From Escherichia coli (lineage in GTDB: Bacteria > Pseudomonadota > Gammaproteobacteria > Enterobacterales > Enterobacteriaceae): a stretch of DNA of 64,000 bases. Each line of letters starts with the position of its first letter. Positions within the stretch are counted from its first letter, which is position 1. The DNA lies in assembly GCF_046105845.1 (NCBI RefSeq), contig NZ_CP151004.1; one strand, 5' to 3'. The notes below the pieces were generated by a model. It was not told the DNA's origin, did no database searches, and saw only the letters and a program-made list of their open reading frames with translations. Shown here in pieces: positions 37,430-37,601 of the stretch. A program made the position numbers and the translations under genes.

Positions 37430-37601
37430 GAATACTCTCCTGTCTGACATTGACAAAATAATGACAATTGAAAATTCGTTTTCGTCTGTTTTTGAGCATA
37501 TTTGTAATTTATGTTCAAAAACACGACACGCATCACTAATTTGATCATTTGTGTCATTTAAATTGACCAAAGACGACAAAATTAAACAGGACAAGACAAA
37601 T
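37430..37601. promoter_or_regulatory. divergent promoter/operator region between reductase and kinase genes
   Basis: AT-rich, repeated tgacaa / tgtcat half-sites; candidate DeoR-type operators. Confidence 0.4.

Follow-up and report, generated by a model that had tools for sequence, protein, structure and literature searches.

The 172-bp spacer at positions 37430-37601 of a 64,000-nucleotide stretch of the Escherichia coli contig NZ_CP151004.1 (assembly GCF_046105845.1; the whole stretch is called the window below) separates two divergent genes, homologous to yihU and yihV of E. coli K-12. We consider it likely that this spacer is the bidirectional promoter-operator of the so-called short yih cassette, a diverged homologue of the region bound by CsqR (YihW) in K-12, and that it is bound cooperatively by YihW at multiple sites. 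That this cassette exists and that YihW binds its yihU/V spacer is already known, having been published in 2025. What we add is a computational map at the level of individual sites, in pieces of 10-40 bp, with a conserved palindrome in the centre and boxes composed of TGTCA and a T-tract on its flanks.

The arrangement that we propose is as follows. The DeoR-type repressor, whose gene lies about 0.9 kb downstream (38538-39326), would bind as a cooperative oligomer to sites spread over about 125 bp. Its primary site would be the 37-bp palindrome together with outer TGTC/GACA elements (37483-37528), which contains or abuts the predicted back-to-back -10 regions. Auxiliary TGTCA-plus-T-tract boxes would flank the palindrome, one at the -10 region of the kinase gene (37552-65) and an inverted double box in the yihU-side leader (37441-69), and a further box (38482-93), between a CRP-like site and the -10 element of the regulator gene, would provide autoregulation. 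Once bound, the repressor would keep RNA polymerase from both promoters until an effector sugar releases it. The proposal is based on homology, conservation, motif statistics and the published binding of the whole Nissle 1917 region, and from these we infer the contacts at individual sub-sites, the promoter assignments and the identity of the effector.

The short yih cassette was described as a set of yihT, yihU, yihV and yihW homologues that occupies the place of the K-12 ompL-yihOPQRSTUVW genes in inverted orientation and whose YihW shares 72% identity with that of K-12 (Kaznadzey et al. 2025, PMC12608037). In electrophoretic mobility shift assays (EMSAs), both Nissle 1917 YihW and K-12 CsqR shift the Nissle yihU/V fragment, the two proteins cross-bind to both alleles, and the Nissle yihV/W region is shifted by YihW as well (PMC12608037). 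The degenerate yihU/V primers used in these assays match the window perfectly at 37367-37387 and 37612-37631; therefore, the type of fragment tested contains the whole spacer.

The regulator of the window carries the Pfam domains HTH_DeoR (1.2e-23) and DeoRC (7.4e-46), so that its assignment to the DeoR family by an earlier first-pass annotation of this DNA holds; its best NCBIfam match is GlpR. Its stretch DVSTQTVRRDIRKLSEQGLITRHHGGAGR (residues 35-63) is identical to that of CsqR and the N-terminal DNA-binding regions of the two proteins are nearly identical, because of which both regulators should read the same DNA code. The sequence common to the window and K-12 spacers is therefore the best guide to the operator.

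One genome per species was scanned, which yielded 79 loci encoding YihW relatives. From these, 74 distinct yihU/V spacers were extracted and grouped by gene content into 9 short-type (window included; Escherichia, three Citrobacter, Phytobacter, Enterobacter sp., Erwinia typographi and Trabulsiella), 53 long-type and 12 other spacers (Yersinia, Hafnia, Serratia, Budvicia, Leminorella and Chimaeribacter). Conservation was mapped on an alignment of 71 of them, three very long ones being excluded. Positions 37484-37513, 37516-21, 37525-28, 37533-37 and the -10 element of the kinase gene are largely conserved in all three groups, with a block of about 30 bp kept in at least 70% of each. Within the nine short-type spacers, 37479-37513 (TTTTCGTCTGTTTTTGA.CATATTTGTAATTTATG) and 37533-37563 (TCACTAATTTGATCATTT.TGTCATT.AAAT) are near-invariant and AAAAAC at 37517-37522 is invariant.

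The conserved core contains the 37-bp palindrome TGTTTTTGAGCATA-TTTGTAATT-TATGTTCAAAAACA (37487-37523), our proposed primary YihW operator, which overlaps the predicted divergent promoters. Its 14-nt arms (37487-37500, TGTTTTTGAGCATA; 37510-37523, TATGTTCAAAAACA) are complementary at 13 of 14 positions and stand 9 bp apart. Outside the arms lie CGTC at the left and GACA at the right, so that each arm reads as a TGTC-N2/3-TTTTTGA box. The core-left box is CGTCTGTTTTTGA (37483-37495, plus strand), which corresponds to TGTCTGTTTTTGA in K-12 and to TGTCACTTTTTGA in the metagenome-assembled locus L007; positions 37484-37495 are conserved in at least 90% of long-type and in most short-type spacers. 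The core-right box lies at 37514-37528 on the minus strand, with the reverse complement TGTCGTGTTTTTGAA (long-type TGTCAATTTTTTGAC). Its AAAAA and GACA are kept in all spacer groups, and it gives a weak match (37514-31) to the position matrix described below.

This palindrome, the dominant feature of the spacer, was missed by the first-pass annotation. K-12 data point to the same place. Chromatin immunoprecipitation with exonuclease digestion (ChIP-exo) of K-12 YihW gave one dominant peak at 4071641-4071681, with a signal/noise ratio of 168 against at most 14 for the others (PMC8464067). The coordinates are those of U00096.2, as judged from the other peaks of the published table and from the published yihV start, and the peak thus covers -121 to -81 from the yihV ATG (L002 13619-13659). 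Projected to the window it falls at about 37475-37514, that is, on the left box, the left arm and the palindrome centre; this interval, projected from a K-12 peak, contains none of the motif copies noticed in the first-pass annotation.

Those copies were repeated tgacaa and tgtcat motifs, proposed as candidate operators of the adjacent regulator. The two strings quoted as examples are present at 37446-37470 and 37548-37568. Motifs were counted on both strands and compared with 5000 dinucleotide shuffles of the 172-bp spacer. The exact hexamers TGACAA (2 observed, 0.57 expected, P=0.11) and TGTCAT (2 observed, 0.41 expected, P=0.06) are not significant by themselves, whereas their shared core TGACA/TGTCA is (4 observed, 1.34 expected, P=0.028), with copies at 37445, 37451 and 37462 on the plus strand and at 37552 as TGTCA. 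The shorter strings GACA (9 observed, 2.4 expected, P<0.0002) and GACAA (5 observed, 1.0 expected, P=0.001) are also over-represented.

The core recurs in orthologues. In 13 diverse orthologous spacers, TGACA/TGTCA is the top over-represented pentamer after the ribosome-binding site (39 against 10.1 expected, z 9.8) and TGTCAT/ATGACA is found 20 times against 3.1 (z 9.1); the spacers are related, so these z-scores are inflated and their independence overstated. TGTCA-oriented instances have a T-rich 3' flank and give the consensus TGTCAyTTTTTG, and in 39 of 52 cases consecutive boxes of the same orientation are exactly 10 bp apart. One such double TGTCA box adjoins yihU and is conserved in long-type and other spacers. 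The label "half-site", used in the first-pass annotation, is thus probably wrong: the units are boxes of TGTCA, a T-run and G, which in the other groups are mostly repeated in the same orientation at 10 bp. A box of the form TGTC-NN-TTTTTG recurs in K-12 at the ChIP-exo site, at the yihU-proximal site and in the yihW promoter. The individual K-12 copies are TGTCACTTTTTGTCA adjacent to yihU, TGTCTGTTTTTGA at the left and, inverted, TGTCAATTTTTTGA at the right of the core, CGTCACTTTTTA in the yihV -35 region and TGTCACTTTTTGTATAAAAT in the yihW promoter; the 10-mer GTCACTTTTT is present three times in K-12.

A matrix derived from 138 unique TGTCA-centred sites, all in loci outside the short type, was scanned over the window (about 128,000 positions). 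The first-ranked match, 38479-96, lies at the regulator promoter; 37549-66 ranks second, 37452-69 (minus strand) fifth and 37441-58 (minus strand) tenth. Three of the top ten matches thus fall within the 172-bp spacer (binomial P=2.3e-6 for three or more); since exact TGTCA cores served to train the matrix, the core is partly built into this result.

One could read these data strictly, the TGACAA/TGTCAT hexamers themselves being the operator half-sites and sufficient for YihW binding. The enrichment of their core in this spacer and its orthologues speaks for it, as do the conserved double TGTCA box next to yihU, the high matrix ranks of these very copies and the invariance of TGTCAT 37552-57 in all nine short-type sequences. 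We nevertheless regard the strict reading as rather unlikely. Besides the borderline counts of the exact hexamers, for three of the four copies conservation ends at Escherichia or Citrobacter (TGACA at 37445 and 37462 is restricted to Escherichia among short-type spacers, TTGACA at 37450 to Escherichia plus Citrobacter), and these spacers do not conserve TTGACC at 37563 either. The K-12 in vivo footprint projects to the central core instead of the hexamer copies, and the most conserved 30 bp hold only degenerate versions of the core (CGTCT, TGTAA, TGTCG). The proposal of operators made from these motifs is therefore best kept in part: YihW does bind the Nissle region and TGTCA/TGACA does recur across yihU/yihV spacers of Enterobacterales, but a single copy is invariant in the short type, and the motifs look like auxiliary boxes flanking the palindrome.

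The first of these candidate auxiliary sites is the yihU-proximal TGACA cluster at 37441-37469 (cores 37445-49, 37451-55 and 37462-66), a candidate YihW box pair which reads TGTCATTATTTTGTCAATGTCA on the minus strand. Its reverse complement TGTCATTATTTTGTCA aligns to the K-12 double box TGTCAC-TTTTTGTCA with a score of 20 (P~0.02) and, against two other long-type spacers, inverted scores are 24-25 compared with 12-16 in the same orientation, in which the cluster matches the ribosome-binding site only. Because the reverse complement aligns in this way, the yihU-side module appears, from the alignment, to be an inverted version of the long-type double box with 11-bp spacing. In the comparison with the K-12 intergenic region, which the first-pass annotation suggested, TGTCAT at 37552 is missing from the long type, where GGTGAAAT stands at the kinase -10.

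That TGTCAT belongs to the second candidate auxiliary site, the box TGTCATTTAAATTG (37552-37565, plus strand), which corresponds to the second example of the first-pass annotation, holds matrix rank 2 and abuts or overlaps the kinase -10. Immediately upstream, the block ATCACTAATTTGATCA (37532-37547, plus strand), with a box-like TCACT..TTTG, lies over the -35 region of the predicted kinase promoter; it is near-invariant in the nine short-type spacers, and its TCACT is conserved in all groups.

The third is situated at the predicted promoter/operator of the regulator gene (38460-38502, plus strand), within the 3' end of the kinase gene. It comprises a candidate CRP-like site CGTGA-N6-CGAAT (38460-75), the box TGTCACTTTATG (38482-93), which is the best matrix match of the 64-kb window, and a predicted -10 element TAAAAT (38497-502). 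In K-12, the start of yihW and its CRP site are known from the literature. The yihW-promoter box sits in the last codons of yihV, and TTTTTGTCACTTT is conserved at synonymous codon positions there in 9/9 short-type, nearly all long-type and fewer of the other loci.

A different reading would keep the palindrome as the only operator and treat the flanking TGACA/TGTCA copies as chance in AT-rich DNA or as promoter and leader features. The left cluster is indeed weakly conserved and the statistics of the single spacer are borderline; moreover, TTGACA at 37450-55 is a perfect sigma-70 -35 consensus, and the conservation of TGTCAT, which abuts a -10 element, could reflect promoter constraint. Yet TTGACA was rejected as a -35 element, there being no usable -10 partner at 16-18 bp, and a simple consensus scan gave no promoter on either strand. 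The clustering of top matrix matches, the resemblance of the left cluster to an inverted long-type double box, and the occurrence of the same box as top match at the regulator promoter, in a region whose Nissle counterpart is also shifted by YihW, are hard to reconcile with chance. We therefore find an operator confined to the palindrome doubtful, and retain the multi-site arrangement.

Since the consensus scan of 37380-37660 found no promoter on either strand (and no terminator), the promoter positions rest on the mapped K-12 transcription starts (yihV, -25/-27; yihU, -15, -25, -35, -62/-63 and -82/-92), projected to the window. The yihU start at -62/-63 projects to about 37489-90, and the predicted yihU-like -10 is TATGCT (37495-37500, minus strand), inside the left palindrome arm, where K-12 has TACGAT. 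For the kinase, the predicted -10 is TTAAAT (37558-37563, plus strand; TAAAAT in orthologues), directly after TGTCAT; its K-12 counterpart in the alignment is TAAAAT, 7 nt upstream of the yihV start as mapped. Transcription is predicted to begin near 37570 on the plus strand for the kinase gene and near 38509 on the plus strand for the regulator gene.

CRP binding has been reported for the K-12 yihU/V region, and alignment with K-12 suggests a possible degenerate CRP-like site CACGA-N6-TCACT at 37522-37537. It is conceivable that GACA...TCAC at this place and TGTGA-like sequences are CRP sites and that the region serves mainly catabolite control, with little part for YihW. The K-12 equivalent ATTGA-CAGCCG-TCACT (ATTGA-N6-TCACT), whose centre is at about -41 relative to the mapped yihV start, fits such a role, as do the unresponsiveness of the Nissle cassette to sulfoquinovose and the weak YihW binding at 37 degrees C. 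The left half-site is degenerate in the window (CACGA), the palindrome has the wrong spacing for CRP, the TGTCA-T-tract boxes remain unexplained and YihW binding to the Nissle fragment was demonstrated experimentally. Control mainly by CRP thus seems very improbable to us, while CRP binding as such is compatible with a YihW operator.

Several observations weigh against the bidirectional YihW operator that we favour. Sulfoquinovose does not induce the Nissle short cassette in vivo, releases YihW-DNA complexes only weakly in vitro, and YihW binding is weak at 37 degrees C (PMC12608037). From these Nissle results, derepression by sulfoquinovose probably does not apply to the window allele, and the in vivo regulatory importance of the site is uncertain. 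The ChIP-exo peak is off-centre with respect to the palindrome and comes from K-12, not from the window allele. Promoter, CRP or other global-regulator sites could account for part of the conservation of the core, and short-type genera show poor conservation of the TGACA cluster on the yihU side. To the relatedness of the spacers and the training of the matrix, given above with their numbers, must be added that the strict pattern TGTCNNTTTTTG, with at most one mismatch, is not enriched window-wide (9 matches, 7.2 expected); two of these nine matches coincide with the two YihW targets.

A further, tentative possibility is that the locus is an eight-gene catabolic cluster and not a truncated sulfoquinovose cassette, whose YihW paralogue would sense another effector and keep the operator code of CsqR; we would give this less than even chances. 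The eight genes encode a yihU-like reductase, an aldolase, a Zn-dependent dehydrogenase, two anion-type MFS transporters, an epimerase, a kinase and the regulator, a content which suggests an anionic sugar or polyol as substrate. If this were so, the inverted double box and the extra TGTCAT would amount to a rewiring of the operator geometry, a possible reason why binding in Nissle is weaker and sensitive to temperature.

The window is chromosomal E. coli DNA, 3.5 kb of which match strain VCSW7 at 99.9% identity. The boundaries of the spacer given in the first-pass annotation are exact. The yihU-like coding sequence starts at 37429 on the minus strand and the kinase ATG is at 37602 on the plus strand; the DNA between them is AT-rich, with a GC content of 30% compared with 50% for the window, and lies within the EMSA primer bounds (37367-37631). 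GTG-started open reading frames of 359 amino acids (36551-37630, minus strand) and 315 amino acids (37551-38498, plus strand) extend both flanking genes across the spacer; annotation and homology support the ATGs at 37429 and 37602 as the true starts.

The first gene of the putative leftward operon (36551-37429, minus strand; annotated by PGAP), the yihU-like reductase gene, encodes a protein 73% identical to K-12 YihU, which scores 580 bits against the NCBIfam sulfolactaldehyde 3-reductase equivalog (cut-off 348); its ribosome-binding site GGAGAG is the reverse complement of 37435-37440. To the other side are the yihV-like PfkB sugar kinase (37602-38498, plus strand; Pfam PfkB; 67% identity to K-12 YihV; Shine-Dalgarno sequence AGGA at 37588-91) and the yihW-like regulator (38538-39326, plus strand), 72% identical to K-12 CsqR. 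Leftward, all on the minus strand, follow a DeoC/LacD-type aldolase (35639-36526; 66% identity to K-12 YihT), a Zn-dependent dehydrogenase (Zn-ADH, 34596-35606), two MFS transporters (33093-34526 and 31645-32994; aromatic-acid/anion and metabolite/H+ symporter types) and an aldose-1-epimerase (30768-31655; 26% identity to YihR over about half its length). The dehydrogenase and both transporters lack counterparts in the K-12 cassette. The unit 30768-36526 is presumably driven from the spacer, as a putative operon with a common strand and gaps of at most 98 bp or overlaps. These four co-oriented genes beyond the aldolase, in a cassette called "short", bear on which substrate is really used by Nissle, ST131 and further host-adapted strains; beyond annotation the importance of the finding is little. 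The cassette is flanked by yihY and yihX (minus strand) to the left of the epimerase and by yihN, yihM and yihL (minus strand) to the right of the regulator. Over the compared flanks, which reach the aldolase, Zn-ADH and first MFS genes, these three are syntenic in Citrobacter, Phytobacter, Erwinia typographi, Trabulsiella and Enterobacter sp.

With a 281-bp query, the short-type spacer was found in 1326 of 5426 complete E. coli genomes, about a quarter, with identity of at least 98.6% over the query among the E. coli matches listed. The matches amount to 1327 places, two of them on records labelled plasmid. The K-12-type spacer was not retrieved with the short-type query by megablast or blastn. 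The genome NZ_AP027764.1 has 70% identity over 65% of the query and may have an intermediate allele. Two unusual loci were encountered among the orthologues. In L007 (4823-6774, metagenome-assembled Enterobacteriaceae), long-type yihQ/P/O stand next to short-type yihU and yihW; the kinase gene is missing, yet the core operator TGTCACTTTTTGATCATATTTGTAATTT, equal to the consensus box fused to the left arm, is kept. In L078 (4418-12247, Citrobacter sp. NCU1), yihU and yihW are divergently oriented, accompanied by a second DeoR gene and ADH/MFS genes on the opposite side.

Some minor features of the spacer and of its K-12 counterpart should be recorded. Three direct 10-mer copies like AAACACGACA (90-100% identical) are situated at 37519-37528, 37569-37578 and 37584-37593, two of them in the predicted kinase leader and one overlapping the Shine-Dalgarno region; in short-type orthologues their conservation is only moderate. 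An Rfam scan of 37200-37800 returned a single sub-threshold snoRNA match attributable to chance, which rules out a riboswitch or small RNA in the spacer as far as that scan goes. Within the palindrome arms, ATGTTC invites a GlpR-like reading; it is confined to the E. coli short allele and was judged coincidental. A minor K-12 YihW ChIP-exo peak (signal/noise 13.7) lies upstream of glpA (L082 85-100) on AAGTTCGTTTTTTA, which resembles the core-left box GTCTGTTTTTGA and which looks like a GlpR-type half-site. This hints at cross-recognition between the paralogous repressors YihW and GlpR; the minor peaks at glpA and ssuE are too weak for use as evidence.

Among known systems, the Nissle yihU/V region is apparently the same element as the window spacer, with gene order inverted relative to yihN and yihX in both; this assignment is based on primers, organisation and protein identity. 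The Nissle study tested the whole fragment and named no sub-sites (PMC12608037). The tagatose cluster of Nissle with its TagR operators (PMC12226905), also considered, was set aside as a separate locus with ABC-transporter genes and a CTTTC-type operator.

The yihU/V region of K-12 (PMC5816610; PMC8464067) is a homologous spacer of 167 bp, compared with 172 bp in the window. Both have divergent yihU and yihV genes, a DeoR-family regulator, a core of about 55 bp with the palindrome and the kinase -10 (TCGTCTGTTTTTGAGCATATTTGTAATTTATGTTCAAAAACACGACACGCATCACT in the window, TTGTCTGTTTTTGATCGTATTTGTAATTTATCGTCAAAAAATTGACAGCCGTCACT in K-12), and a yihW promoter that is autoregulated and carries the same TGTCAC box. 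The flanks, in contrast, are divergent: in the window, the double TGTCA box on the yihU side is inverted with 11-bp spacing, the TGTCAT box replaces GGTGAAAT at the kinase -10, and the outer arm elements are weaker, CGTC/TGTCG instead of TGTC/TGTCA. The downstream genes differ as well, Zn-ADH, two MFS genes and the epimerase gene standing in place of yihS, R, Q, P, O and ompL. In K-12, CsqR acts as a repressor; it binds cooperatively to the yihU/V spacer, and its complexes with DNA are polymer-like. Two further papers on CsqR (PMC10991401 and PMC8249747) contain no DNA motif. DNase footprints of CsqR were reportedly determined by Shimada et al. in 2019.

More distant parallels are provided by other DeoR-family regions. 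GlpR (at the glp promoters), E. coli DeoR and AgaR employ several operators, divergent promoters, cooperative oligomers and overlap with CRP sites, and GlpR recognizes WATGTTCGWT palindromes. TagR and AgaR use CTTTC-type repeats (PMC12226905). The window spacer, with a sugar-catabolic repressor of the same family, resembles the GlpR, DeoR, AgaR and TagR regions in this respect, and its boxes differ from the recognition sequences of GlpR, TagR and AgaR.

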